From: a virus
Strand: one strand, 5' to 3'
UHGV virus genome: UHGV-0008619
DNA: 40,339 nucleotides
In this document: positions 11,198 through 38,888 of the stretch, piece after piece
Position numbering within the stretch: the first letter of the stretch is position 1
Layout of the letters: each line of letters opens with the position of its first letter
Position numbers and translations under genes: made by a program
The notes under the pieces: generated by a model
Database searches by the model: none
What the model saw: the letters and a program-made list of their open reading frames with translations, nothing else
What the model was told of the DNA's origin: nothing

Positions 11198-14100
11198 TTA
11201 CCAAACACCAACAATAACTTTACCACCATTAGGAAGATTAACAGTGACACCGTTATTATTCATAACTACCCGTCCGTCGGCACTGCTCATATTGAATGTT
11301 TTTCCGCCCTGAACAACAACACTGCCTCTTACGGTAACGTCATTGAACACAGCCCAGCCATCTTTATTTATCATCCAACCCTGATCGCTGCCGTTCCAGT
11401 TGTGTGACGCTATGTAGTTGCCTATTTTTGCGTTGTCTATTGAACCGTCTTTAATAAACGCTTCTTTCACATACATTGCACCATTGGTGACATAGAAAGG
11501 CGTTGTATATGTGCCGTTCGCGTCAGTCATTAGCACGAAGCGATCAACAAGGAAAATACACTGCGATTGAAAGTTAGTACCGTCTCCAGTCAATCCAAGC
11601 GACATACCTGTAGCGTATTTCATGCCGTTGTTATCGGTGGCTAGCTTGATTGAATATGACGCATTAATGTTACCTTTGAGATCGATTAACGCTTTTGACG
11701 TTGTCTCGACCGCTGTCGCGCTCCCGTTAAAGGTCACTTTCAGTTGTTCAATAGCCTCGGCGCGGGCATGGGTTTCGTCTGCTATTGCCGTATCGATCCT
11801 TGCTATTTCCGCTTTTGTTTCTGTCTGGCTTTTCCTGTACTTCGCTTCAATAACGTTGCTCATCTTACTTTGCGCTATTGAGTTGTTAATGAGTGCAAGT
11901 GAGGCGTTTTGTATGCTTGCTTTTGCCTGATCTATCTTGTCACTGGCTTTACCAGCCTTATCACCAACAATACCAAGCTCCGCACTGATGCCCGATATTG
12001 CCTGGGCGCGAGCGCTTGATTCATCGGCGATGGCTTGATCTAGGCGGTCAACACTGGCGTTAGTGTTATTTTCAAGCGTTGTTAAATCAGCTTTAACCTG
12101 TGTTATTGCGTCGCTTCTTGCTTGCGTTTCATCTGATATTGCTTTATCAAGACGAGAAACGCTCGCATCAGTCTTGCTTTCAAGGTTAGTTATTGAAGCA
12201 TTCACGTCACTAATGGCTTCAGCGCGTGCACTCTCCTCGTTAGCAACTGCGCGTTGCACATGGGAAATCTGGCCTTTAAGATTGTTATCCATCGCATTCA
12301 TTTCTGCCGTGATGGTTTCCAATGATTCCGCAGTCGCTTTTTTCTCTTCAGCGATAACGTTGTCGATGCGGTCAATTTCCGCCCTCGTCTCTGTTTTACC
12401 TTTCTTGTACTGAGCGGTAAGAGTTACGCGGGTGTTAGTCTGTGCAAGTGAGTTATTAATAAGAGCGAGTGAAGCATTTTGTAGTCTTGCTTTTGTCTGC
12501 GCCAGTTCGCTGTTAGTTTTTTCGCTAGACACCTCTAATGAGTCTATTCTTACCTTATGCTGTCCTATGTTATCGGCGTTTCCCTGAGCTTTTTTATAAA
12601 GCTCTTCTGTTTCTTTTTTAAGCGTGTTGGTGTCAGATCTTAAATCGCCAGTTATATTGGCGAGATTATTAGTCGCTGTTTTTAGGTCATTCGTAGCTCT
12701 TTCGATAAGATCGGTGCGGTCACCAAGATCTTTGATGCCGCCAATCATTTCTTTAAACTGTTCTGAATTCATCACGTCTTTGGTGACGTAATCGCTGATT
12801 TCATCAAAGTTTTCAGTCGGTTTGCCTGATGCTTCAACGAAGTCTGACACACCAAAGGCATTACGCGTGCGCACATAAACGTAATAAGTGTGGCCCGTGT
12901 TCATGCCGCCAAAAGTCCACTGATACCCGCGCCCGGTAAACTGAGCTAATGTGGTTACTTTTGATGGGTCTGTGATCTGGTTTTCACCTGAGTAATAAAA
13001 CTCGTATGCCGTATCAGTGGTCAGGGTTGTTTTGCTGATCGGATATACTGTTGCCTGGAAAACGCCGGGAACCCAATTAACGCCTATTGGGGCCGCTGGC
13101 GCACCAATAATCAGGTCCACAATACTTTCCGCACCCTTCATGCCAGTGTCATTACGCCCGCGAATACCAAGCGTGTAGCTGCCAGCATCAAGGCCATAAA
13201 AATCATAGCGGTAATTCGTTGTTTCATAAGCTGCCACCACGCGGCCTTCTGCGTTATATACGCGGATCTCAAAGGTCAGGCGATGCGTTGTTGTCTGCGT
13301 TTCCCATGTAGCTCTACATTGAACAGTTTCAGAACCAACATTTAACACCTTCAGGTTTTCAATGTTCGGCACGCGGAAGTGATTAAGCGTGTCGTTGTTT
13401 ATCTCAAAGATTGCGCCTTCATCAACTACAGCCTGTTTATGCGGATCGTGCTGTGCAGCCTCGATGGTGTACACGCTGTTATTTTCGGTTTCTGCTACGC
13501 TGGTGATTCGACACAGAACCGGTTTTGCAGATTCAGTCGACACGGCAAACACGGTTCCGTTACGAATCCATGCGGGCGCTGCCGCAAGGGTAATATTGTT
13601 TCCGTCAACTCCAGTGATCTGATGTTTTTTAAACTTGCCGTCGCTGTCCAGTAAGCTGATAGTGTCACCAGCCGCCACCAGGTCAGAATCAACCTTGTCT
13701 ACAGTTATCACTTTCCCATTATTCGCCACGATGCGACCGCCTAAACGAGCGCCAGCGCGGTTATTGTCGAGTATCTCGATAATATCACCTGGGGTGAAGT
13801 GAATTGCGTCACGGGCCATTTTAAACGTGAATTTTGAGGGTTCGCGTTTTGCTGTTTCTATCAGCCATTTGCCAGCGCGGTACGCCTGCCCGCGTGACGT
13901 GCAACCGAAAGCCTCCAACGTGGTTTCGTTGTAACCATCGCGGGCGATCAGTTCATCATCTGCTACGTATTCTTTTGATTGTTCCCAACCGTTTTCCGGG
14001 TCAGTCCATGACACGATCACGGCGTTGTAAGATTCTGCGCGGGCGATACTTGAACGAGTAAACGCGCCATCAACGACGTTTGCATTTGTGATGGTGGCAA

Positions 14101-15217
14101 TTGGATCCTGCGGTGCATCAATCATCACCGTAAGGCGCTGCCCGTCCCATAACGCGATTCCACGGAACATACCTGCAATGTTATCCAGCAAGTCGCGGGC
14201 GCTCATTTGCTCCGTGATGTAAGCATTAAGCGTCATGCGAGGTTCAAAACCGCCGTATCCGTCGCTAACCAACTGGTCGCAGTATTGAGAAAGCGTATAT
14301 AATGCGCCGTCATCAACGTCAATGTAACCAGCGTGGCGGGCAAGCCCGAAGCGTTCATTTTTAACCAGATACCGGAAAAGCCAGGCAGGGTTGTTGGTGT
14401 ACGCTTTTTTAAATCCACCCAGCCATAAACCTGAATACGTGCGCGTTTCAGGGTTGTAGTTGTCCGGCACATCAACAATCAGTCCGCGCAGATGATAAGT
14501 GCGGGCAGGAGTATCAGTATACTGGTCATGGTCAATTACCGCGCCAGCCACAGCGGTATGAGGGTAAGACAGGTTATCGTCGATTATTTCGCTGTAGCTA
14601 CTCCACCGCGTATCATTACGAAGAAGATCACTTTTGCTGTCTGGTGTTACGCGACGAACGCGAATATCAAACGGCTTTTCATCCGGCGCGTTGATAATGT
14701 GAGCTTCCAAGTATTCACCGCTCTGTTTACCAGGCCCGATGGTAATATCCTTAACCAGCGTCCACGTCGATGATGATGATGGCTTAACATCAACCATTAA
14801 CATAACTGACGTGTTGTATTGATTGCCCTTATCATCTGACTGAACAAGAGCGTCAACGCCAACATTTAATCTAACGCGGGTGACGTTTGGATCTGAAACG
14901 GTCCTGATTATTGGCGTATCGCGTTTTACCTGTGTGTTAACAATAACAGTTGATTCAATGGCGTTAAAACCGTTAATCGGTGATTGGTCAGCCGTGCCAT
15001 TGCGCCACGCTATACTTACCCCAGGGATTGATGTATTCCCGTTGGCGTCAGTAACAGGCGTGTCATTAAGCATCACATCATTTAATGGCGCTTTCTGGTT
15101 TACCGGACCGTATATCGGCCCCTCGCTGAGAATGTCTAAAACACGATAAAACTGTTTATGATACAGGTTATCGTTTAGCAATGTTGGTGTTTTGGCTTTG
15201 CCGCCGCCGCTACTCAT
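11198..15217 (-). CDS. J: central tail fibre / host specificity protein J homologue
   Basis: Lambda J-like blocks (LWSSYSEIID, NYNPETRTYSGLW, AFGCTSRGQAYRAG, YYVYVRTRN); ATG 15217 with AGGAG RBS; contains expanded coiled-coil segment. Confidence 0.9.
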   Translation of the reverse strand: MSSGGGKAKTPTLLNDNLYHKQFYRVLDILSEGPIYGPVNQKAPLNDVMLNDTPVTDANGNTSIPGVSIAWRNGTADQSPINGFNAIESTVIVNTQVKRDTPIIRTVSDPNVTRVRLNVGVDALVQSDDKGNQYNTSVMLMVDVKPSSSSTWTLVKDITIGPGKQSGEYLEAHIINAPDEKPFDIRVRRVTPDSKSDLLRNDTRWSSYSEIIDDNLSYPHTAVAGAVIDHDQYTDTPARTYHLRGLIVDVPDNYNPETRTYSGLWLGGFKKAYTNNPAWLFRYLVKNERFGLARHAGYIDVDDGALYTLSQYCDQLVSDGYGGFEPRMTLNAYITEQMSARDLLDNIAGMFRGIALWDGQRLTVMIDAPQDPIATITNANVVDGAFTRSSIARAESYNAVIVSWTDPENGWEQSKEYVADDELIARDGYNETTLEAFGCTSRGQAYRAGKWLIETAKREPSKFTFKMARDAIHFTPGDIIEILDNNRAGARLGGRIVANNGKVITVDKVDSDLVAAGDTISLLDSDGKFKKHQITGVDGNNITLAAAPAWIRNGTVFAVSTESAKPVLCRITSVAETENNSVYTIEAAQHDPHKQAVVDEGAIFEINNDTLNHFRVPNIENLKVLNVGSETVQCRATWETQTTTHRLTFEIRVYNAEGRVVAAYETTNYRYDFYGLDAGSYTLGIRGRNDTGMKGAESIVDLIIGAPAAPIGVNWVPGVFQATVYPISKTTLTTDTAYEFYYSGENQITDPSKVTTLAQFTGRGYQWTFGGMNTGHTYYVYVRTRNAFGVSDFVEASGKPTENFDEISDYVTKDVMNSEQFKEMIGGIKDLGDRTDLIERATNDLKTATNNLANITGDLRSDTNTLKKETEELYKKAQGNADNIGQHKVRIDSLEVSSEKTNSELAQTKARLQNASLALINNSLAQTNTRVTLTAQYKKGKTETRAEIDRIDNVIAEEKKATAESLETITAEMNAMDNNLKGQISHVQRAVANEESARAEAISDVNASITNLESKTDASVSRLDKAISDETQARSDAITQVKADLTTLENNTNASVDRLDQAIADESSARAQAISGISAELGIVGDKAGKASDKIDQAKASIQNASLALINNSIAQSKMSNVIEAKYRKSQTETKAEIARIDTAIADETHARAEAIEQLKVTFNGSATAVETTSKALIDLKGNINASYSIKLATDNNGMKYATGMSLGLTGDGTNFQSQCIFLVDRFVLMTDANGTYTTPFYVTNGAMYVKEAFIKDGSIDNAKIGNYIASHNWNGSDQGWMINKDGWAVFNDVTVRGSVVVQGGKTFNMSSADGRVVMNNNGVTVNLPNGGKVIVGVW

Positions 15218-15231
15218 GGCTTTTTCTCCTG

Positions 15232-15762
15232 TCAACTTACAACGTCTAAGGCGTCTTTGTTATTACTTGTGTCTATGCCTAACGATCCGACGTTTGAACC
15301 TATTTTCATTTCGCCCAATAGGATTGGCACTGGTCTACCCTGGCCTACCTTGTTTTCAACGCTGGTGTAGGTGTTGTTCGTTATGGTGTTATCTTGTGCG
15401 CTTTCTGCTGATGTTTTTACCTTCATGTTGCGGGACATAAAGAGGGAGAACGCAACGCTAACCACTGAAACACCAATCAAGATCCAGCCTACAACACCAA
15501 TCCCAGCAATACCGCCTTCAACTACTGGTGCAACAATGACGGTAGTCCCATCCGGGTATTTACTATTAACCGCTGCGGGCGCGGTCTTTTCGTCATAATC
15601 TTTTCCGGCAATTCGTAAGCGCAATGGGGTGCTTAAAAACGCCTTCTTGAACTCATAATTCTGCGCAACCAATAAGCTAAGCCCCTGCGCTGGCGTTTCA
15701 ACGTTTAAACACACCTTGCCGTAATATCTTCGAAGATTGCCCGTAAATCTAAATTTGAGCAT
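15232..15762 (-). CDS. tail assembly protein I-like
   Basis: 176 aa; lambda I-like segments (IVAPVVEGG, PILLGEMKIGS); position between K and J. Confidence 0.7.
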   Translation of the reverse strand: MLKFRFTGNLRRYYGKVCLNVETPAQGLSLLVAQNYEFKKAFLSTPLRLRIAGKDYDEKTAPAAVNSKYPDGTTVIVAPVVEGGIAGIGVVGWILIGVSVVSVAFSLFMSRNMKVKTSAESAQDNTITNNTYTSVENKVGQGRPVPILLGEMKIGSNVGSLGIDTSNNKDALDVVS

Positions 15763-16436
15763 TTGTCAGATCTCCATATTGAATGCGTTTGTCGAACATA
15801 CGCGGGCCGCATTTGCTCGCGGCGGCTTAACAGTCCGGCATTGTCATGATGCAAAACAGTGTTATCGCCCAGGTAAATCATCGCGTGACATGGGTCAGTG
15901 CCTTTAAACGGCTGACGGATAATTACGTCACCTGGCTGAATACTTTGCGCGTCAACCATGAAAAACCCGTTCAATGGCAGGTTCTTTATGTACAGGTTTT
16001 CCCCACGCAGCCACCACCCGTCGTGGCGTTCAAAGTCAGGCAGATCCACGCCGCATAGGTGATAGGCGTCACGAAAAAGCGAGTAGCAGTCTGTTTTCCC
16101 GTGTTCAAATTTACGGCCTAACAGGTGCGCCACCGGGCGGAATTTTCTTACCCTGCCACCGGAACACAAATACCACGGCAGGCCGGAAATAACCTGCTGT
16201 TGTCGATCACGTGCTGACAATACCAGTGAATTGTCAGTATGGGAGTGAAAAACGGCGGTTATAACGCCTAATTCGTCAGCTTTGATATAATCGTCAGGCG
16301 AGATTTTAAAGCTGTTGTGCGGCGTTTCAGACACGTTTAAGCATGGGTAAAAATAATCGTTATCTATCACCAGCCCGCACACTTCCTCGCGCGGGTGGGC
16401 TGCCGCATAGCGAATCATTTTATCTTCAAGTGCCAT
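15705..16436 (-). CDS. tail assembly protein K-like (JAMM/MPN plus NlpC/P60 domains)
   Basis: HSHT JAMM-type motif and DCYSLFRD...H NlpC/P60 signature; ATG 16436 directly after L stop. Confidence 0.8.
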   Translation of the reverse strand: MALEDKMIRYAAAHPREEVCGLVIDNDYFYPCLNVSETPHNSFKISPDDYIKADELGVITAVFHSHTDNSLVLSARDRQQQVISGLPWYLCSGGRVRKFRPVAHLLGRKFEHGKTDCYSLFRDAYHLCGVDLPDFERHDGWWLRGENLYIKNLPLNGFFMVDAQSIQPGDVIIRQPFKGTDPCHAMIYLGDNTVLHHDNAGLLSRREQMRPAYVRQTHSIWRSDKCSNLDLRAIFEDITARCV

Positions 16437-16438
16437 AA

Positions 16439-17143
16439 TTAACCGACCTTGCTTGATCCGGGGAAACATGAAATTGGTAACGGATTGGGGCGCGGGAAAC
16501 GCAAACGGCAACCGCTCAGGCGGTGGCTGCATTTATCCAGTTTTGGATCGCTGGTCGATTCGTCTTTATCTGTAGCTACAGGGCCGCCACTGTATCCGCA
16601 ACCGTCGCCCCGGTATTGCCACTGGCAAACGTCAGCGAGGATTGTGCGCCCAGGGATAACTGCCTTGTCGGCATCAATTGGCGTTGACAGTTCATATTGC
16701 ACCTGGTCGGCTGTTTCTTCGCTCATCGCCTCAACGACGTAAAAAGATACCGCCTCGATAGACGGATCTGCATCCGGGTTGCCATTGGGGAAGTTGACAG
16801 CGTCCAGATATTTTACTTCCACCTGGCGGCGCGTAACCTTCATTCCTCGCAGGTCGTTAAAATCGTTGTTCATCCCGGTGATTAGCCCGCCAATGTTGGC
16901 TACTACCATTTGCGGGCGCGAGTAAACGCCTTCGTTTTTCATTTCGAAGCCAGTAGCCTCGATTGGGTAGCTGTTGTAAGTCACTCCCTTCCAGATAACC
17001 GGGCCGTAATAGCCATTCGCGCCGGAATGGAAGCGGATAACCTCGCCACCCAGGGGCGTCAGGTCCAGTTCAAATAAGTCAATGACCGCGCCGACTCCGG
17101 CATCCACGGAATCAATAATCATTTCTGTAGGTATGCTGCGCAT
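16439..17143 (-). CDS. minor tail protein L-like
   Basis: Lambda L-like sequence incl. GDGCGYSG...C..C cysteine cluster; AAGGTGA RBS before ATG 17143. Confidence 0.85.
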   Translation of the reverse strand: MRSIPTEMIIDSVDAGVGAVIDLFELDLTPLGGEVIRFHSGANGYYGPVIWKGVTYNSYPIEATGFEMKNEGVYSRPQMVVANIGGLITGMNNDFNDLRGMKVTRRQVEVKYLDAVNFPNGNPDADPSIEAVSFYVVEAMSEETADQVQYELSTPIDADKAVIPGRTILADVCQWQYRGDGCGYSGGPVATDKDESTSDPKLDKCSHRLSGCRLRFPRPNPLPISCFPGSSKVG

Positions 17144-17196
17144 TTTATCACCTTGTAATTTTGTGATCGCCATCACGCTAAATCATACCAAAACGG

Positions 17197-17225
17197 TTGA
17201 TTGCGTTTTTTACAATATGTATATT
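17197..17225 (+). promoter_or_regulatory. sigma70-type promoter (TTGATT-17-TATATT) for L-M intergenic cassette
   Basis: Near-consensus -35/-10 with 17-bp spacer, 17 nt upstream of RBS AAGGAAG and ATG 17242. Confidence 0.55.
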
Positions 17226-17241
17226 GTACTCAAAAGGAAGC

Positions 17242-17472
17242 ATGGTTAACAAAATGGCGCGGAGGTGTGAGGTGGATGATAAGGTGTGGAGGTTGACGGT
17301 GTTCCTTAGTGATGGCAGGGAAATGACTGTTGCCCTGTATAAAGATGAAGGCGAGGCACTTACTGACGCGCTATTACTCGCTGAAGACGAAAGGGTTTTG
17401 GGGTACAGGATTAAACCTGTCAAATGGGAGGTTAACAAAAAATGCAAAAATACAGTCTTGACGTGTGGTTAA
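17242..17472 (+). CDS. hypothetical protein (cassette gene 1)
   Basis: ATG 17242 with AAGGAAG RBS; 76 aa. Confidence 0.5.
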   Translation: MVNKMARRCEVDDKVWRLTVFLSDGREMTVALYKDEGEALTDALLLAEDERVLGYRIKPVKWEVNKKCKNTVLTCG

Positions 17473-17789
17473 GTGGTTACAAGGAGTGTTTTGGATTATT
17501 TGATAGCGAAGAAGTAGCCCTTGAAGAAGGAAGGATTCTTGAATGTAGTTTAGGCCATCCGGTGAAATATGCTGCTAATCCGGTGCAGGTAATTGATGAG
17601 GTGGAAAACATGAACCCGAAAGATATTAACTTTAACGTCAATGTTGAATTTGCTGACTCTATGGATCAGGCTTGCCCTGGTGAAATACACGCAAAAGGTT
17701 TCCCGGCAGACGATCCGCAAGCAAAACGCGAATACGAAAAAGCTGCGAAAGACTTCTGTATAGATAACTTAAGTTGCTTTGATAAATAG
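17442..17789 (+). CDS. hypothetical protein (cassette gene 2)
   Basis: GGGAGG RBS before ATG 17442; 115 aa, acidic. Confidence 0.55.
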   Translation: MQKYSLDVWLSGYKECFGLFDSEEVALEEGRILECSLGHPVKYAANPVQVIDEVENMNPKDINFNVNVEFADSMDQACPGEIHAKGFPADDPQAKREYEKAAKDFCIDNLSCFDK

Positions 17790-17797
17790 GCGGCAAT

Positions 17798-18046
17798 ATG
17801 GGGCGGCGCAATCACGGCGATTATGTGTACACGTTGAAACAGGCCGCCCGCCTCATCGGTTATCATGAGCACGAATTTATTGATTTGCTGATTGAGCGCG
17901 GGATACTGTACCAGGTCTGTTTAACGCTGTACCCAAAAGCGAAATACCTACAGGAAAAGTTATTTATCATCATGACGGACGAAAACCAGGTTAATCATTC
18001 ATTCGTCACTGATAAGGGCGTTAATTATCTGCGTGATAACTTATAG
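17798..18046 (+). CDS. hypothetical protein with HTH-like segment (cassette gene 3)
   Basis: 82 aa; segment YTLKQAARLIGYHEHEFIDLLIERGIL looks HTH-like. Confidence 0.5.
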   Translation: MGRRNHGDYVYTLKQAARLIGYHEHEFIDLLIERGILYQVCLTLYPKAKYLQEKLFIIMTDENQVNHSFVTDKGVNYLRDNL

Positions 18047-18056
18047 GTGACAGATT

Positions 18057-18173
18057 ATGAAAATAGAAGTTTTGGCGCTAATAATAATGGGATTGATAGT
18101 GTTTGGCGTTCATGCTGTAGATCTGGACTGGAAAACGATAGCGGAAAATATAGCGTTAATGGAAATGGGATAA
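18057..18173 (+). CDS. small hydrophobic membrane peptide, 38 aa (cassette gene 4)
   Basis: AGGTGA RBS 6 nt before ATG 18057; MKIEVLALIIMGLIVFGVHAVDLDWKTIAENIALMEMG; followed by terminator. Confidence 0.4.
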   Translation: MKIEVLALIIMGLIVFGVHAVDLDWKTIAENIALMEMG

Positions 18174-18179
18174 TAATAA

Positions 18180-18205
18180 CCCCGCCGTGGCGGGGTGTTT
18201 TTTTT
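18180..18205. terminator. rho-independent terminator (bidirectional)
   Basis: CCCCGCC-GTG-GGCGGGG hairpin followed by T8 on + strand, T-rich on - strand. Confidence 0.7.
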
Positions 18206-18386
18206 AATCGTAGGATAGAAATGCTACTTCTTTGCCATCCCAAGTCGTACAGCCGATATATCCATCACCCATGTCATGAAGATACCACGTCTCACCGTTA
18301 TCAGCCCGTACAGTGAGATCATTAATTTCATAGTCGGCAAACAATGTAAAAGCGCCAGTGCGCTCCACTACACAAAAATAAGGCAT
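18204..18386 (-). CDS. hypothetical protein (60 aa) downstream of M
   Basis: ATG 18386 preceded by GGGAGGGGGG RBS directly after M stop. Confidence 0.5.
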   Translation of the reverse strand: MPYFCVVERTGAFTLFADYEINDLTVRADNGETWYLHDMGDGYIGCTTWDGKEVAFLSYD

Positions 18387-18396
18387 ACCCCCTCCC

Positions 18397-18750
18397 TTAA
18401 TTAATAACTTGCTCAAACGTTGCGTTTAGTGTGTACACAGGCCCGTCTTTGGTCATACTCCAGTTACGACAAACGAAAAGCCTTTGCACCCCATCCATCG
18501 AAGGCGTCCAGTAGAAAGCATCGACAGCGCCTCGCGCCCTCAAGAATGCTTCTGCCTGGATCGCTACATTCCCACTATCACCGCATCCGGCGCTACTGCC
18601 TTTAAAAACCAGGGTATAACTATCAAGTAATGTGTTAATCCCTTTCGCCTGCCTTTGTTCATAGTTGTCACCAAGTTTAATGACAGATACGTTTGGTTCC
18701 CTGGTCACGCTGTAGCTTCTTTGCGGCGTCCATCTGAAAACTTCCGGCAT
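18397..18750 (-). CDS. minor tail protein M-like
   Basis: 117 aa; FRW near N-terminus and C-terminal FEQVIN match lambda M pattern; GGGGG RBS. Confidence 0.8.
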   Translation of the reverse strand: MPEVFRWTPQRSYSVTREPNVSVIKLGDNYEQRQAKGINTLLDSYTLVFKGSSAGCGDSGNVAIQAEAFLRARGAVDAFYWTPSMDGVQRLFVCRNWSMTKDGPVYTLNATFEQVIN

Positions 18751-18814: not shown

Positions 18815-18849
18815 TCATCACAAGAATTATAACCAGTTTACAAAATGGC

Positions 18850-18878
18850 TTCACATAAGGCGTGACAAGATGTATATA
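18850..18878 (+). promoter_or_regulatory. candidate promoter (TTCACA-17-TATATA) for M-H intergenic cluster
   Basis: -35/-10-like hexamers with 17-bp spacer about 40 nt upstream of ATG 18920. Confidence 0.35.
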
Positions 18879-18919
18879 GTAAGCAAGAAGAAAAAGCAGT
18901 ACCGACAAGGGGGGGCAAT

Positions 18920-19075
18920 ATGGAACGCTATGTGGTTGTGATGCTGAACAAAGCATTCGAACAGGTGGAAGTTGCGATTGTGAAGGGCTTTGATGATGCA
19001 TTCAAATACGGTCAATTCATGATGAATGCAAAAGAAGATGAATACCGTGATTTCTTCCTGAAAGTGGTCAACTAA
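18920..19075 (+). CDS. small hypothetical protein (51 aa)
   Basis: GGGGGG RBS before ATG 18920; below ORF-track cutoff. Confidence 0.4.
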   Translation: MERYVVVMLNKAFEQVEVAIVKGFDDAFKYGQFMMNAKEDEYRDFFLKVVN

Positions 19076-19093
19076 TGGATTGCGGGGTGGGTT

Positions 19094-19348
19094 ATGAAAT
19101 TGGTAGCGATTGGTAAAAACCTGAAAGCACAGAAAAACGCACAGGACCGGATCATCAAAAAGGGCAAGGCTTTATTAAATGCTTTCCTGAAAAAAGAGGC
19201 CAACCCCAAAAAATTACGCGATGGCTACGGTTATAAATTTGACATCAACCCCGATTGGCGGTTATTCAGCGAAGATTTAAAGATGTGGTTAATTATTGAC
19301 CACCTGGAATATAACAGGCACTGTGGGGTGAAAGGGGCGCATAAGTAA
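19094..19348 (+). CDS. hypothetical basic protein
   Basis: 84 aa, Lys-rich; GGGGTGGG RBS before ATG 19094. Confidence 0.5.
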   Translation: MKLVAIGKNLKAQKNAQDRIIKKGKALLNAFLKKEANPKKLRDGYGYKFDINPDWRLFSEDLKMWLIIDHLEYNRHCGVKGAHK

Positions 19349-19462
19349 GGCGGGCATGAAGGGCGATAAATCCACCTGGCGGGAGAACTGGAATATTTGG
19401 TTGGTGATTTTTGTGAGGGTATATATCTCGCGGAATGGTCGGATATAAAAATGGGTGTGATT

Positions 19463-20395
19463 ATGGCGCGAAAAATGACACATGAAGAACATATTGCAGA
19501 TATAGCAAATGTCAATCCGCGTGTTGATATTTTAGGAGAAATTACAGGCTGCAATGATAAGGTGTTGTGTCGTTGCAGAGTTTGTAACCACGAATGGCGT
19601 ACTACGCCGCACAGCCTTAAGACTGGCAGGGGCTGCCCCGAATGTAAAAGAACAAAGATAGCACGAATAAAACAACTATCACATAACGATCATGTCGCTG
19701 CAATTGCTAATGTTAATCCATTTGTTGAAGTGCTAGAAAAAATTGTTAATGTAAAGAAAAAGATCACATGTCGTTGTAATAATTGCAAAAACATATGGAT
19801 GACTACGCCAAATGATCTCAAAAACGGTCACGGCTGTCCGAAATGCTCTGGCGTAGCGAAGCTGTCACATGAAGAGCAGATTGCAGCTATTGCGAAAGTT
19901 AACCAAAATGTTGAGGTAATAGGTAATATCGTTAATGACAAAACAAAAGTATCATGCTGCTGCAAGGTTTGTGGTCATGTGTGGTCGGCTACGCCTAACG
20001 ACCTTAAAAATGGGCGCGGCTGTCCGAAATGCGCGAAACGCGGGTTTTTATCCCACGATCACGGAAAACTTTACATCATGGTTGATGATCTGGAGGTGCC
20101 AACAATGATGAAAATCGGCGTGAGCGTTAAGGAGAACGAGCGAAGAAATAAAGTATTAAAAAGCGCACATAAAGCAGGTGTCAGAATCCCTGATTTGTAT
20201 GTCGCGAAAACGTGGGTGGGGCCAACTGAAAAAGTACAAGAATTAGAAAGCACGATGCATAAGGCTTTTAGCAATTATAAAATTAACTTTCCTGTAAAAT
20301 TTGATGGGAGTAATGAATTTTTCTACTACAGGCCGGAAGTATTCAGCATGGTAGAAAGTACATACAGTGATATTGTAAATAAAAATGCGGCATGA
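19463..20395 (+). CDS. protein with three tandem zinc-ribbon repeats and C-terminal T5orf172/GIY-YIG-like domain
   Basis: Three ~58 aa repeats each with C-x2-C ... GxGCPxC; C-terminal KLYIMVDD...KIGVS...ERRNKVL resembles T5orf172; start 19463 or 19451 (track start is TTG 19397). Confidence 0.6.
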   Translation: MARKMTHEEHIADIANVNPRVDILGEITGCNDKVLCRCRVCNHEWRTTPHSLKTGRGCPECKRTKIARIKQLSHNDHVAAIANVNPFVEVLEKIVNVKKKITCRCNNCKNIWMTTPNDLKNGHGCPKCSGVAKLSHEEQIAAIAKVNQNVEVIGNIVNDKTKVSCCCKVCGHVWSATPNDLKNGRGCPKCAKRGFLSHDHGKLYIMVDDLEVPTMMKIGVSVKENERRNKVLKSAHKAGVRIPDLYVAKTWVGPTEKVQELESTMHKAFSNYKINFPVKFDGSNEFFYYRPEVFSMVESTYSDIVNKNAA

Positions 20396-20435: not shown

Positions 20436-22643
20436 TTATCTTTTTCGTGGCTGTATAATCCCCCCGGGGCGCGTGCTCTGCTCCCTCACAACACCCATAG
20501 CAACCTTCTTCATCGTCTCTTGCAGTTTGGCGCTGTCCTGCTCGGTCCATCCGTTCTCGGCTGTTATGTTGATGGTAACAGGCATGTTGATGCCGCCACC
20601 GCCGCCAATATCACGGCCCGGAATGATACGACCGTTCTCGCCTGGGATCATGTACTGCCTACCGTTATTGGTCTGGAAAAGCTCGGGGACTTTGTTTTCA
20701 CCGACCCTATAAAGATTGCCACCATTAACCGCACCGCCGTTATAACGAGCACCAGCAAGCCCAAGCGCCTTAGCCCCAGCCACACCAGTGGCAAGACTCG
20801 TGCCCCCCACGGTCGCCGCTCCGCCCATCGTGGCAACGTTTGCCAGGTATGCAGGAGTGGCCCACGCAGAGCCTAATGCAGTAGCCTCGGCTAGTGCTTT
20901 AGCTGTTGCCGCAGCGCTGGCGGCCTCACCGATCAATTGCTGTTTAACCCATTCAGCCCCCATTTGAACAAGTGTACCGATAACGGAGGAAAGGATTGTA
21001 TTGCCAATGTTAGCCAGCGCCTGCTGCCAGCTTTGAGTACCGTTAACCAGGCCCACAAGCGCATTTGTTGCAGATCCGCCCATTGCATCAACGGTATCGC
21101 CCAACAGTTTGTAGCTCATTGACTGTGCTTTATATCGCTCCCATTCAAGGGTGAGCATTTCCTGTGCGTGTGCTCTTTCTTGTTCCCTCATATATTGCTC
21201 AGTAGCGCCAAGATCTTCCAGCATTTGCTTACGAACGGTCCATTCATTTTGCGCCTGCTGTATTGGGTCCAGCTCGCCGCGCTTCTGATCCAGTGAAGGA
21301 ATCATTTTGTCCCATTTTTCTTGCAGCCTATTGATCGGGTCGTTAATTTCTGCCAGAGTTTCGCGCAATTCATCACCGATTCCCTTCATTGCGCCTTTGT
21401 ATTCAAGCATGGTTATTTTCCCGGCTTTAAAGGCTGCATCTATGGCTTTTTGTGATTCAAGCGCTTTGCGCATTGCTGCTGAATCTTCGTTATATGCATC
21501 TGAAATGCGCACACCCTGTTCCGCAAGGCGCTCGGCTTCTGATTTGCCGGTTTTTTTACCTTTGCCATTCTTACCCTTACCACCAGGTTGAGGCTTAAAC
21601 GTTATGCGACTTACACCAGCTTGCCCCGTGGGGAGAGTGGAAACAAATGGCTGTTCTCCATCACCAAACCATCCAACCTGTTTCGCTTGAGCGCGGAACA
21701 AACTAAGCCCAGGTACTATCCCCTCAAACGCCCCAGCCAATAGCCACAATTTGTCAGTTAATGACGTGCTATCGCTCGCCAGGGACTTAAACCAACCGGA
21801 TAACATCTGAACTTCACTAGAAACAGCCTTTATACCAGTAACTACCAAATCAGACACCCCAAGCGCTTGGTTTAGCGTGTCAATTAACAGATCGAAGTTG
21901 TTTTTTAGCTCGTTAAATGCCTGATCTGTTGTTGTTGGCAGCTTTGCGAAGTCCTTCTCTATGTCTTCTGCTCCAGCAAGGATTGCGTTTGTAACATCCT
22001 CGGCGGTGAGCTTACCATCAAGCATTCTTGCGCGAAGTTCACCCATCGAGATCCCCATCTGTTTAGCGACGCGACGCCACACTTCCGGCATGTTTTCAAG
22101 CACAGAGTTGTATTCTTCCGCGCGAACAATGCCGCCAGTCAGTGACTGTCCTAACTGGCGAAGTGCGTTTGACATTTCATCTGAGGAGCTACCTCCGATA
22201 CGGCCTATTTTCTGAAGCGAGTCGGTAAGCTGCAATACCTGTTGACTTGTCGCACTGGTATCCTGTAGGCTGGCCTTTAGGCTTTCCCACAGCTTCCCGG
22301 TGCTTTGAACACTCATCCCTGTGCGATTCGATATCTGAATAATCCCGTCAAAATTCGATTTCGCGTCAGCAATGCCGCTTGATAGCCGCGTTACCCTGGC
22401 GCGTAGCAGATTTACGTTATCTGCGATCTCCAGGAATTTTTTTGCAGCCATGACCATCATTCCAATGTTCACAGCTTTGGATAACTTACTTATCGTGGTA
22501 TTAAGTGACTGCACTGATTTATCGGTACGTTTGGCACCTTGCTCGATTTTATCAAACGAGTCCTCAGCCTTGCGTTGAGCTACGAGTAACCGCTCGGTTT
22601 TTGCGTCAACGGTATACTCAATCGTGCCCACATTTGTTGTCAT
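20436..22643 (-). CDS. tail tape measure protein
   Basis: 735 aa, long helical/low-complexity Ala/Gly-rich protein, position between chaperone and M; GGAG RBS. Confidence 0.85.
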   Translation of the reverse strand: MTTNVGTIEYTVDAKTERLLVAQRKAEDSFDKIEQGAKRTDKSVQSLNTTISKLSKAVNIGMMVMAAKKFLEIADNVNLLRARVTRLSSGIADAKSNFDGIIQISNRTGMSVQSTGKLWESLKASLQDTSATSQQVLQLTDSLQKIGRIGGSSSDEMSNALRQLGQSLTGGIVRAEEYNSVLENMPEVWRRVAKQMGISMGELRARMLDGKLTAEDVTNAILAGAEDIEKDFAKLPTTTDQAFNELKNNFDLLIDTLNQALGVSDLVVTGIKAVSSEVQMLSGWFKSLASDSTSLTDKLWLLAGAFEGIVPGLSLFRAQAKQVGWFGDGEQPFVSTLPTGQAGVSRITFKPQPGGKGKNGKGKKTGKSEAERLAEQGVRISDAYNEDSAAMRKALESQKAIDAAFKAGKITMLEYKGAMKGIGDELRETLAEINDPINRLQEKWDKMIPSLDQKRGELDPIQQAQNEWTVRKQMLEDLGATEQYMREQERAHAQEMLTLEWERYKAQSMSYKLLGDTVDAMGGSATNALVGLVNGTQSWQQALANIGNTILSSVIGTLVQMGAEWVKQQLIGEAASAAATAKALAEATALGSAWATPAYLANVATMGGAATVGGTSLATGVAGAKALGLAGARYNGGAVNGGNLYRVGENKVPELFQTNNGRQYMIPGENGRIIPGRDIGGGGGINMPVTINITAENGWTEQDSAKLQETMKKVAMGVVREQSTRPGGIIQPRKR

Positions 22644-22678
22644 GATTGTTACTCCACTTTTGTGATCTGTGTATCTAT

Positions 22679-22722
22679 TTTATACAAAATGTCTTTACTA
22701 CAACGACTCCATTTTGTATAAA
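22679..22722. promoter_or_regulatory. 12-bp perfect inverted repeat (TTTATACAAAAT/ATTTTGTATAAA) overlapping candidate promoter TTTACT-17-TATAAA
   Basis: Arms at 22679-22690 and 22711-22722, 20-bp spacer; right arm contains -10-like TATAAA. Confidence 0.45.
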
Positions 22723-22799
22723 GAGACTAAAGGAAAGGGATAGAGTAAAGGGGTTTGAAAGGACCGGATAAACCGGAGGAAGCAAAAGAGGATAAGAAA

Positions 22800-22889
22800 A
22801 TGAAAAACGTAAACTATCGTCCCAACGAACATGAACGCTATGCGGACTTCATAGAAGAAATGTTAAAAGCACTTAAAAACAAAAATTAA
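22800..22889 (+). CDS. small hypothetical protein (29 aa)
   Basis: GAGGA RBS 7 nt before ATG 22800; MKNVNYRPNEHERYADFIEEMLKALKNKN. Confidence 0.3.
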   Translation: MKNVNYRPNEHERYADFIEEMLKALKNKN

Positions 22890-22901
22890 TCGAGGCGGGT
22901 T

Positions 22902-23399
22902 ATGAAACGGTTAGTAAAAGTCGCGGTAGCTGCGGTCATGGCAATATTCGCGGTCAATGCAAATGCAAGTAATAAAGTCAGCAAGATGTGCGACGCTATT
23001 TATCCAGCCTACGAAAAAGCATATACAATGGCAAATGTAAACTTTTTTTCAATTGGTAGGCACGGCGTTAACTGGGAGTATTTCATCTTAAATAAAGATA
23101 GCAGGACCAAAAAGAGTGACGCTAAAATGATAAAAGCGCACAGTGAAAGTTTCGCTCACATGATGGCTGTTATTGAAAACAAAGAAAATGACAATGAATT
23201 TAAAAACTTTGTCGCCGGACTTGCCATCATGGCTGCCGAACGGGCGATAAAGGATCACGACAATAACGCTTATGCCGCTGCCGACGAGATGGCATTAGAT
23301 AGGGTAAGAATTGACTTCAAAAACATGTGCATCAAAGAAGGCGCTAACATGTATAAAAAAGTAATAGATAAACACCACGAATATTATATAGGTTATTAA
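22902..23399 (+). CDS. secreted/periplasmic hypothetical protein (moron)
   Basis: 165 aa with N-terminal signal peptide MKRLVKVAVAAVMAIFAVNANA; on opposite strand within tail operon; followed by terminator. Confidence 0.65.
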   Translation: MKRLVKVAVAAVMAIFAVNANASNKVSKMCDAIYPAYEKAYTMANVNFFSIGRHGVNWEYFILNKDSRTKKSDAKMIKAHSESFAHMMAVIENKENDNEFKNFVAGLAIMAAERAIKDHDNNAYAAADEMALDRVRIDFKNMCIKEGANMYKKVIDKHHEYYIGY

Positions 23400-38633: not shown

Positions 38634-38774
38634 TTATCCTTCTTTGCCTCCTTTGAACCCCAAACACTCCGCGTATTCGTCAATGCTTAATGCTTCCTCA
38701 CCTGGTGCCAGCAATTCAAAGTAACGGGCATATAACTCAAAAACCCATGCCGGATATTTAGCGTTAGCGCTCAT
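38634..38774 (-). CDS. small hypothetical protein (46 aa)
   Basis: GGAGG RBS before ATG 38774; below ORF-track cutoff. Confidence 0.35.
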   Translation of the reverse strand: MSANAKYPAWVFELYARYFELLAPGEEALSIDEYAECLGFKGGKEG

Positions 38775-38888
38775 CTTCTTGCCTCCCCTCCGCCTTTCCG
38801 TGGCTTATATATAACAAAATGGCACTGTCGAAACAATGCCATTTCGTAAACCTTGTGATACAGATCACATTTATGGTTGTCCAACGCC

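Follow-up and report, generated by a model that had tools for sequence, protein, structure and literature searches.

What does a cassette of four small genes, lying on the strand opposite the tail operon and placed between the tail genes L and M, do for the phage that carries it, given that M and L are adjacent in lambda? The cassette in question occupies positions 17,197 to 18,205 of the virus genome UHGV-0008619, which we analysed over its whole stretch of 40,339 nucleotides (hereafter ‘the window’). Our tentative answer, to which we would give a little less than an even chance, is that it represents a moron-type accessory operon that was fixed early in the mEpimmI family of coliphages, with the KilAC protein encoded by its third gene (C) as the likely effector and with a CRP-type promoter (CRP, the cyclic AMP receptor protein), and that it stands apart from the tail machinery. 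The cassette genes are already present, as hypotheticals, in published genomes; the most interesting new points, in so far as sequence can carry them, appear to us to be the candidate CRP-type site and the promoter elements that the cassette seems to have in common with other antisense islands of the same genome.

The L–M junction in the mEpimmI family

The window belongs to the mEpimmI (mEp021-like) coliphages, with 86-89% nucleotide identity to seven sequenced phages (mEp021, mEp013, mEp010, mEp515, mEp554, mEp044 and MagusPhagus); such phages have been reported to be equally common as lambdoid phages in E. coli isolates from the human gut (PMC11893012). The sample comprises 52 related loci assembled around gene C, of which 44 are IMG/VR contigs, 5 are E. 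coli prophages and 3 come from phage records. Counts given below are over these and the window, 53 loci in total, unless the second set is named; the latter comprises 45 close relatives for which gene M served, independently, as the search anchor. L, B, C, E and M (E being a short gene next to M, described below) follow one another in identical order in every one of the 53 C-anchored loci, and the cassette is present in 43 of the 45 M-anchored relatives, the other two being a truncated contig and a deletion (contig L085). A ‘phage antirepressor KilAC-like’ gene is also among the manually defined core genes of a 48-genome mEpimmI group, in a study where the operon is otherwise unmentioned (PMC11893012). 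The initial annotation had read the cassette as horizontally acquired; that the acquisition was recent is not sustained by this synteny and core status: conservation is established, and the cassette is an old feature of the family, not a fresh insertion.

On a wider scale, though, it is an insertion all the same. Distant relatives (L103-L108, ~30% identity) likewise have M next to L, and the guanine-plus-cytosine (GC) content of the cassette is 0.41-0.44, as against 0.47-0.57 in the flanking tail genes (L, K and tape-measure), for which reasons we regard it as an extra with respect to lambda-type tails and, at the same time, as fixed within mEpimmI. The earlier description of a self-contained module, foreign to the lambda L–M arrangement, is upheld in that the cassette lies on the opposite strand, has a conserved promoter and terminator of its own and differs from its flanks in base composition. 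Taken at the level of nucleotide sequence, these features (own promoter and terminator, flanks that are adjacent in related phages, atypical base composition) are those of a moron.

In contig L085 (IMGVR_UViG_3300045988_076424; 53.9 kb), M and L are intact and ~98 bp apart, with A to E gone. The contig keeps the CRP-type site, the -35, the palindrome at the -10 and the leader as far as GTTAACAAAAT, the loss extending from that point to just beyond the M stop codon, E included, such that the cassette promoter now faces the 3' end of M (L085 3840-3980); the start of E and the cassette leader have a microhomology, ATTTTGT, and it is here that the junction falls. This is a derived deletion, and not an ancestral empty site. 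We thus see a cassette that is old, nearly universal in mEpimmI and apparently dispensable. In the mEp021 record gp69 and gp75 carry a structural label and gp70-74 carry none, and the annotation of that phage made use of virion mass spectrometry, according to the paper describing the family (PMC11893012). Comparison of the L–M junction, which the initial annotation had proposed as a check on insertion, identifies the cassette as a conserved component of the family and provides no link to tail assembly.

The ratio of nonsynonymous to synonymous substitution rates (dN/dS) is 0.13-0.26 across the cassette genes and E, as against 0.08 for L and M, and it is this purifying selection that establishes all of the cassette genes, and E, as genuinely protein-coding.

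Gene C and its companions

Gene C (17798-18046, + strand) encodes a neutral protein of 82 amino acids (isoelectric point, pI, 6.9), made up of a KilAC/ANT domain standing alone. The protein matches Pfam PF03374 with 29.9 bits against a gathering cut-off of 25.3 (E 7e-7), residues 10-82 aligning with positions 23-105 of the 108 in the profile, and the same family is on record for all of its listed relatives bar P0064; its fold finds matches mostly among the winged helices of MerR, excisionase and RacA. We conclude that protein C is a stand-alone KilAC domain with a MerR/excisionase-like winged helix, and we regard this identity as established. The initial annotation, which saw no assignable motif in any of the cassette proteins, was therefore mistaken as regards C; profile searches gave KilAC for C, and for A, B and D nothing beyond PHROGs of unknown function in Pfam, NCBIfam, PADLOC and PHROGs. 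Nor did A, B and D find anything meaningful in the PDB, either by sequence or by profile, hits to designed armadillo repeats being spurious.

In the TDKG motif of protein C (residues 71-74), T71, D72 and G74 never vary, and at position 73 N takes the place of K in 2 of 8 sequences; the AKxLxL motif reported for CreP and P1 KilA is matched only approximately (AARLIGY). C is also the best conserved gene of the cassette (89-100% identity; dN/dS 0.13). Its synonymous divergence (dS), at 0.30, lies well below the 0.53-1.2 of its neighbours, which suggests either an extra constraint acting on the DNA or RNA, or a recent spread by recombination.

What a KilAC domain may do when left to itself is documented in three systems. 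The KilA-C domain of Phi11 Gp07 is enough, on its own, to inhibit the growth of E. coli and make its cells filamentous (PMC5944126); CreP, a stand-alone KilAC protein of 103 amino acids, is bacteriostatic, leads to filamentation in Acinetobacter as well as in E. coli, and co-precipitates FtsZ (bioRxiv 10.1101/2024.01.05.574328); and the KilAC domain of the Listeria protein AriS suppresses the SOS response, probably via RecA, with control of the phage's own genes mapping to the N-terminal domain of AriS and not to KilAC (PMC9043618). Because published KilAC domains arrest growth or division, or inhibit SOS, we take protein C to be a putative host-directed effector.

Two acidic proteins are encoded upstream of C. 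Gene A (17272-17472, + strand; pI 4.7; PHROG 29559) starts with GTG at 17272 (ATG in most relatives), 6 nt past a GGAGG ribosome-binding sequence, the ATG at 17242 not being conserved. In most relatives a TGA stop after ‘...PVK’ yields a protein of 51 amino acids, which corresponds to the conserved core at 17272-17424; in the window this TGA has become TGG, adding a 15-residue tail that overlaps the start of B and bringing the protein to 66 amino acids. Thus, of the four genes that had been predicted (76, 115, 82 and 38 amino acids), the last three stand as they were and the first is to be corrected to 66. A has a dN/dS of 0.20 and is swapped for another small gene in 2 of the 53 loci. The label ‘transporter’ that the Prokaryotic Genome Annotation Pipeline (PGAP) gives to A in some E. 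coli genomes is unsupported by all profile searches.

Gene B (17442-17789, + strand) encodes 115 amino acids (pI 4.4), with a dN/dS of 0.23 overall and of 0.26 and 0.15 in its two halves. Residues 1-50 are modelled as a strand-strand-helix-strand domain, variable in sequence, with a predicted local distance difference test score (pLDDT) of ~90; the C-terminal module (residues 58-115) is strongly conserved (ADSMDQxCPGEIHAKGFPADDP..REYEKAAKDFCIDN), and the model is of low confidence over residues 62-89. The profiles of protein A and of the N-terminal domain of B can be aligned with one another (probability 72%, E 3e-5, 47 columns), and the two are therefore probably duplicates. Identity to the window's own proteins ranges over 43-98% for A and 53-96% for B (dN 0.23-0.31), the variants of each being shuffled among loci independently of those of the other. 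Fusion of A to B, or a frameshift at the poly-A junction between them, can be set aside, as the stop codon of A either precedes or shortly follows the start of B at all loci and there is no in-frame fusion.

A profile search with protein B through 1.84 billion representatives returned 16 hits, about a dozen of which are the B family or fragments of it; P0067 and P0076 among the hits are diverged, stand-alone versions of the C-terminal module, and four others are long repeat-type proteins. The B family is an orphan. Its C-terminal module is also found as a separate, very acidic protein of 56 amino acids (L054 5001-5171), in an unrelated 58-kb phage contig, where it is surrounded by small genes and has no KilAC neighbour. 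Foldseek comparison of protein B with viral models gave weak matches to uncharacterised phage proteins of 50-60 amino acids, some of them labelled DUF7336.

Downstream of C, gene D (18057-18173, + strand) encodes a peptide of 38 amino acids with one hydrophobic segment or possible signal peptide (boundary VHA/VD), its Kyte-Doolittle value exceeding 2 over residues 1-23. Gene D has a dN/dS of 0.20; it is present in 36 of the 53 loci and absent from the other 17, with nothing in its place, and is thus optional cargo. A gene for 77-93 amino acids (X17) occupies the slot between B and C in 7 loci and a gene for 67 amino acids that between C and D in 10, and small hydrophobic peptides vary among loci at the 3' end of the cassette; none of these variable-slot genes gave a match to a known family. 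Together with several of the other small genes, D makes up an interchangeable cargo at the 3' terminus.

Promoter, terminator and the other antisense islands

The near-consensus sigma-70 promoter of the initial annotation, TTGATT-17-TATATT, is indeed present at 17197-17225 (+ strand), and agrees with the consensus at 9 of 12 positions. The match by itself proves nothing, since promoter-like matches of such quality occur in this region at chance frequency (6 found, 6.5 expected); on the other hand, neither TTGAT at the -35 nor TATATT at the -10 varies in any of the 53 aligned L–A intergenic regions, with the neighbouring genes at a dS of 0.6-1.2. The L–A gap is the sole intergenic space upstream of the cassette genes, which themselves offer no alternative place for a promoter. 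We regard the anatomy of promoter and terminator as established.

The -10 sits within an 18-bp palindrome, TACAATATGTATATTGTA (17211-17228), a copy of which, matching at 15 of 18 positions, overlies the promoter of the neighbouring opposite-strand island, the one that separates M from the tape-measure gene. As a CI operator this palindrome was rejected, the 18-mer being absent from the first 37.8 kb of mEp021, immunity region included, and as a LexA box likewise, there being no CTG...CAG within it. Further upstream lies a CRP-type palindrome, TGTGATCGCCATCACG (TGTGA-N6-TCAC; 17162-17177), whose centre at 17169.5 falls at around -61.5 to -63.5 from the predicted start of transcription, and 50.5 bp upstream of the -10 (17220-17225). 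Sites of the form TGTGA-N6-TCAC occur three times in the window against 0.25 expected, and the one at the cassette has 9 of the 10 core bases of TGTGA-N6-TCACA. Both of its arms are invariant across the 53 loci and the middle 4-5 nt are variable, the pattern that would be expected of a site bound by a protein dimer. A location near -61.5 would be a class I position, and cAMP-CRP probably stimulates the promoter from there.

On the - strand, a promoter-like site (TTGTTA-18-TACAAT; 17252-17223) points at gene L, its -10 overlapping that of the cassette within the palindrome. This leftward site is conserved, with L085 keeping the version TTGTTA-18-TAAAAT, and it may serve to restart transcription of L-K-I-J after the island. 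The conserved 5' leader of the cassette, GTTAACAAAATGGCG (17245-17259, + strand), contains a recurrent motif, ACAAAATGG, and is kept even at loci with another gene in place of A. In its upstream/-35 region and in its -10, the cassette promoter resembles the early rightward promoter of mEp021.

At the other end, the strong terminator that had been claimed was found as a hairpin, ACCCCGCCGTGGCGGGGT, followed by T8 (18179-18204; hairpin 18179-18196), with a 7-bp stem that includes 6 G-C pairs and is kept in nearly all relatives, the loops being variable. It is strong in the + direction, and its U-tract is weak in the - direction. Gene E (18204-18386, - strand; 60 amino acids; PHROG 3249; dN/dS 0.16), missed by the first reading, comes directly after M and converges on the cassette at this common hairpin; a search for its homologues found them within the mEpimmI family only. 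Rfam gave no RNA family in the cassette.

The tail genes around these elements, all on the - strand, are J (11198-15235), I (15232-15762), K (15705-16532), L (16439-17143; Pfam Phage_tail_L), M (18397-18750; Phage_min_tail) and the tape-measure gene (20436-22643). In mEp021, an HNH endonuclease gene (mEp021_78; L001 754-1320) stands between I and J; it is absent from the window, where I and J overlap directly.

A second + strand island (18840-20395) separates M from the tape-measure gene and has a promoter-like site of its own, TTCACA-17-TATATA. Its products are a 51-amino-acid protein (PHROG 29810), an 84-amino-acid protein with a ParE-like toxin domain (PF24732, E 7e-12) and a 332-amino-acid protein with three DUF4379/CapR zinc-ribbon repeats and a T5orf172 domain, and the island, whose content varies among relatives, may represent a toxin–antitoxin pair together with a nuclease-like cargo gene. 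In L054, the separate B-type module lies two genes downstream of a DUF723/DUF4379/T5orf172 protein that resembles the 332-amino-acid one. Beyond the tape-measure gene, a third + strand island (22650-23399; GC 0.38-0.41) contains an orphan open reading frame of 165 amino acids, the equivalent of mEp021_63; its promoter region has an inverted pair, ACAAAATG...CATTTTGT, and a half-site, TTTTGTGATC, is located beside the start of the tape-measure gene.

The 9-mer ACAAAATGG is found 7 times in the window against 0.66 expected (at 1969, 17249, 18840, 22709, 26384, 30314 and 38814), and in L053 at 11930 and 37681. It immediately precedes the -35 of the early rightward promoter in mEp021 and occurs at the promoter of the M–tape-measure island; at that of the third island it takes the form of an inverted copy, and in the L–M cassette it lies in the 5' leader, with a degenerate copy upstream of the -35. 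This 9-mer may be a UP-element-like sequence or a site for a regulator. Elsewhere in the window, a perfect CRP-type palindrome, TGTGATACAGATCACA (38854-38869), lies in an intergenic position upstream of a small - strand gene (38634-38774), ~48.5 bp upstream of the -10 of a promoter-like site on that strand (TTGTTT-17-TATATA), and three additional TGTGA-N6-TCAC sites, where 0.21 would be expected, are found in mEp021. On these sequences, the antisense islands appear to have elements of promoter architecture in common.

Competing explanations and known systems

We suggest the following, tentative, course of events for the accessory operon proposed at the outset. Transcription of the cassette would begin at its own sigma-70 promoter, run antisense to the late tail genes and end at the conserved hairpin, and cAMP-CRP would probably stimulate this promoter via the class I site. 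By analogy with the KilAC proteins described above, protein C would most likely bind a host protein and so hold back cell division or dampen SOS. A and B, family-specific and acidic, with their fast-diverging duplicated domain, would most likely modulate or accompany C, or else act as independent small inhibitors. Here it is the CRP control, the timing of expression and the cellular target that we infer. The C-terminal half of B, co-conserved with C and disordered-looking in the model, would fit the role of a neutraliser, without being proof of one.

Several points weigh against this proposal. The nearest outside relatives of protein C are the C-terminal domains of two-domain antirepressors, from Vibrio, Cronobacter, Hafnia and Stx phages, with only 30-38% identity, and the activities of KilAC domains vary among systems, so that any target named for C is a guess. 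For A and B, sequence, profile and structure searches gave no informative homologues. The spacing between CRP-type site and promoter differs by 1 bp between clades, one of which has an extra base, and the palindrome, which adjoins the upstream side of the L ribosome-binding site, could serve another protein or the tail transcript. Finally, the leftward promoter-like site shares part of this invariant DNA, so that conservation by itself cannot tell which of the two promoters is in use.

The antirepressor annotations point to a different module, unlikely in our view, in which C would bind the CI-like repressor Rep021 and aid the lytic switch, with the CRP-type promoter tying induction to nutrients and not to SOS. 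KilAC is typical of phage antirepressors, and not only the nearest outside relatives of C but also gp71 of mEp021 (‘putative antirepressor’) are annotated as such; against this, C has none of the Bro-N, AntA/B, Rha or KilA-N domains of characterised antirepressors, and the mapping of own-gene control in AriS to the N-terminal domain, rather than to KilAC, runs the same way (PMC9043618). A single repressor is common to all mEpimmI phages, most of which are reported not to be UV-inducible (PMC11893012), leaving room for a trigger other than SOS, and a LexA box was not found at the cassette promoter; the deletion in L085, however, suggests that the module is dispensable.

We would rate as similarly improbable a function in anti-defence or host takeover, where A and B would be early small acidic inhibitors with a domain made variable by an arms race, and C one independent cargo gene. 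A and the N-terminal domain of B do diverge fast, with C and the tail genes far more conserved, yet dN/dS remains below 0.3, with no sign of positive selection at this resolution. The A and B variants are shuffled independently and both proteins are acidic (pI 4.4-4.7), but no link leads from either of them to any target. The fold of B is like that of many small uncharacterised phage proteins (some DUF7336), its C-terminal module stands alone among small early-type genes of an unrelated phage and the cassette promoter has its likeness to the mEp021 early rightward promoter; saying this, there was no match to known anti-defence families.

The initial annotation had itself seen, in a DNA-binding protein next to a small membrane peptide, the makings of a toxin–antitoxin, abortive-infection or superinfection-exclusion module expressed from the prophage, with D as membrane toxin or exclusion factor and C (or B) as regulator or antidote; this we consider quite unlikely. 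D is a genuine small membrane peptide, but its absence from 17 of the 53 loci means that a C–D pair is not obligate. B, directly upstream of C, has an antitoxin-like layout (folded N-terminal domain, conserved low-confidence C-terminal half) and co-occurs with C everywhere, but X17 comes between the two in 7 loci, and the C-terminal module is found elsewhere without a KilAC neighbour. The palindrome over the -10 is what autoregulation would predict, yet it is invariant, whereas the candidate DNA-binding domain of B is variable. Tail-region morons can encode exclusion proteins, HK97 gp15 being an example, and a ParE-like toxin gene is present in the neighbouring island. The stand-alone KilAC protein CreP, too, acts as a bacteriostatic toxin (bioRxiv 10.1101/2024.01.05.574328). 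No known toxin or antitoxin family was found, however, when A, B, C and D were compared with Pfam and NCBIfam, and no defence-system model of PADLOC was matched by A, B, C, D or E, such that there is no evidence of a defence system. With D optional, no PADLOC or toxin–antitoxin match, C a KilAC domain and the variable N-terminal domain of B ill-suited to an invariant operator, a module built on C and D fails.

A bolder form of our own proposal, which we regard as a long shot, is that the three antisense islands of the window are co-regulated, as ACAAAATGG, their layout and the CRP-type site (present at L–M, at least partly at M–tape-measure and weakly in the third island) might suggest, and that cAMP-CRP switches on C, with the C-terminal half of B as a check on it, in the manner of a KilAC toxin–neutraliser or regulator pair; if true, such a pair would tie the nutritional state of the host to cell-division arrest or to prophage induction.

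Very improbable, finally, is a part in tail production, whether as assembly factors or through antisense transcription that tunes L-K-I-J: the cassette does lie inside the tail operon of virtually every family member, its transcription converges on the late transcript and the hairpin is bidirectional, but there is a deletion variant with intact M and L, the mEp021 record does not annotate the proteins as virion components, their families are KilAC and orphans with no tail-family match in Pfam and PHROG searches, and lambda-type tails assemble without such genes.

We return, then, to an accessory operon with a KilAC effector. Nearly every mEpimmI member keeps the operon, and its product therefore probably matters for the interaction between prophage and host; moreover, with E. 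coli as host the phage is tractable, and its stand-alone KilAC protein would be a handy route to finding what the widespread KilAC domain binds, and CRP control, if real, would link an accessory function of a prophage to carbon status.

With phage morons in the sense of Hendrix and Juhala, such as lambda lom and bor, or HK97 gp15, the cassette has in common that it is an extra promoter–terminator unit between otherwise adjacent genes, of atypical composition and dispensable. It differs from them in that it lies on the strand opposite the late operon, comprises several genes with internal variable slots, and is fixed across a whole family, where morons are sporadic. In comparison with class I CRP promoters such as lac P1, the TGTGA-N6-TCAC core equals the lac site in match and would sit at a comparable place, ~50 bp upstream of the -10; the core promoter, in contrast, is already near consensus (TTGATT / TATATT), as CRP-dependent ones typically are not, and the spacing of the site varies by 1 bp between clades.

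As for the effector itself, P1 KilA/Ant, Phi11 Gp07 and Listeria AriS contain the same Pfam domain as C (PF03374), and in the latter two the KilAC part by itself gives growth arrest, filamentation or SOS inhibition (PMC5944126, PMC9043618). Two-domain KilAC regulators are encoded in the early or immunity region, whereas C, which is without Bro-N, AntA/B, Rha or KilA-N, is encoded in the late region. A parallel in layout is CreP of Acinetobacter baylyi, like C a single KilAC domain without an N-terminal partner (103 amino acids as against 82), whose reported TxKG motif has a candidate counterpart in the TDKG of C, a likeness drawn from the published description of CreP. Their settings differ: CreP sits within a cas locus, where a CRISPR-like RNA represses it, whereas C is surrounded by phage tail genes and preceded by two orphan genes and a putative CRP-type promoter.

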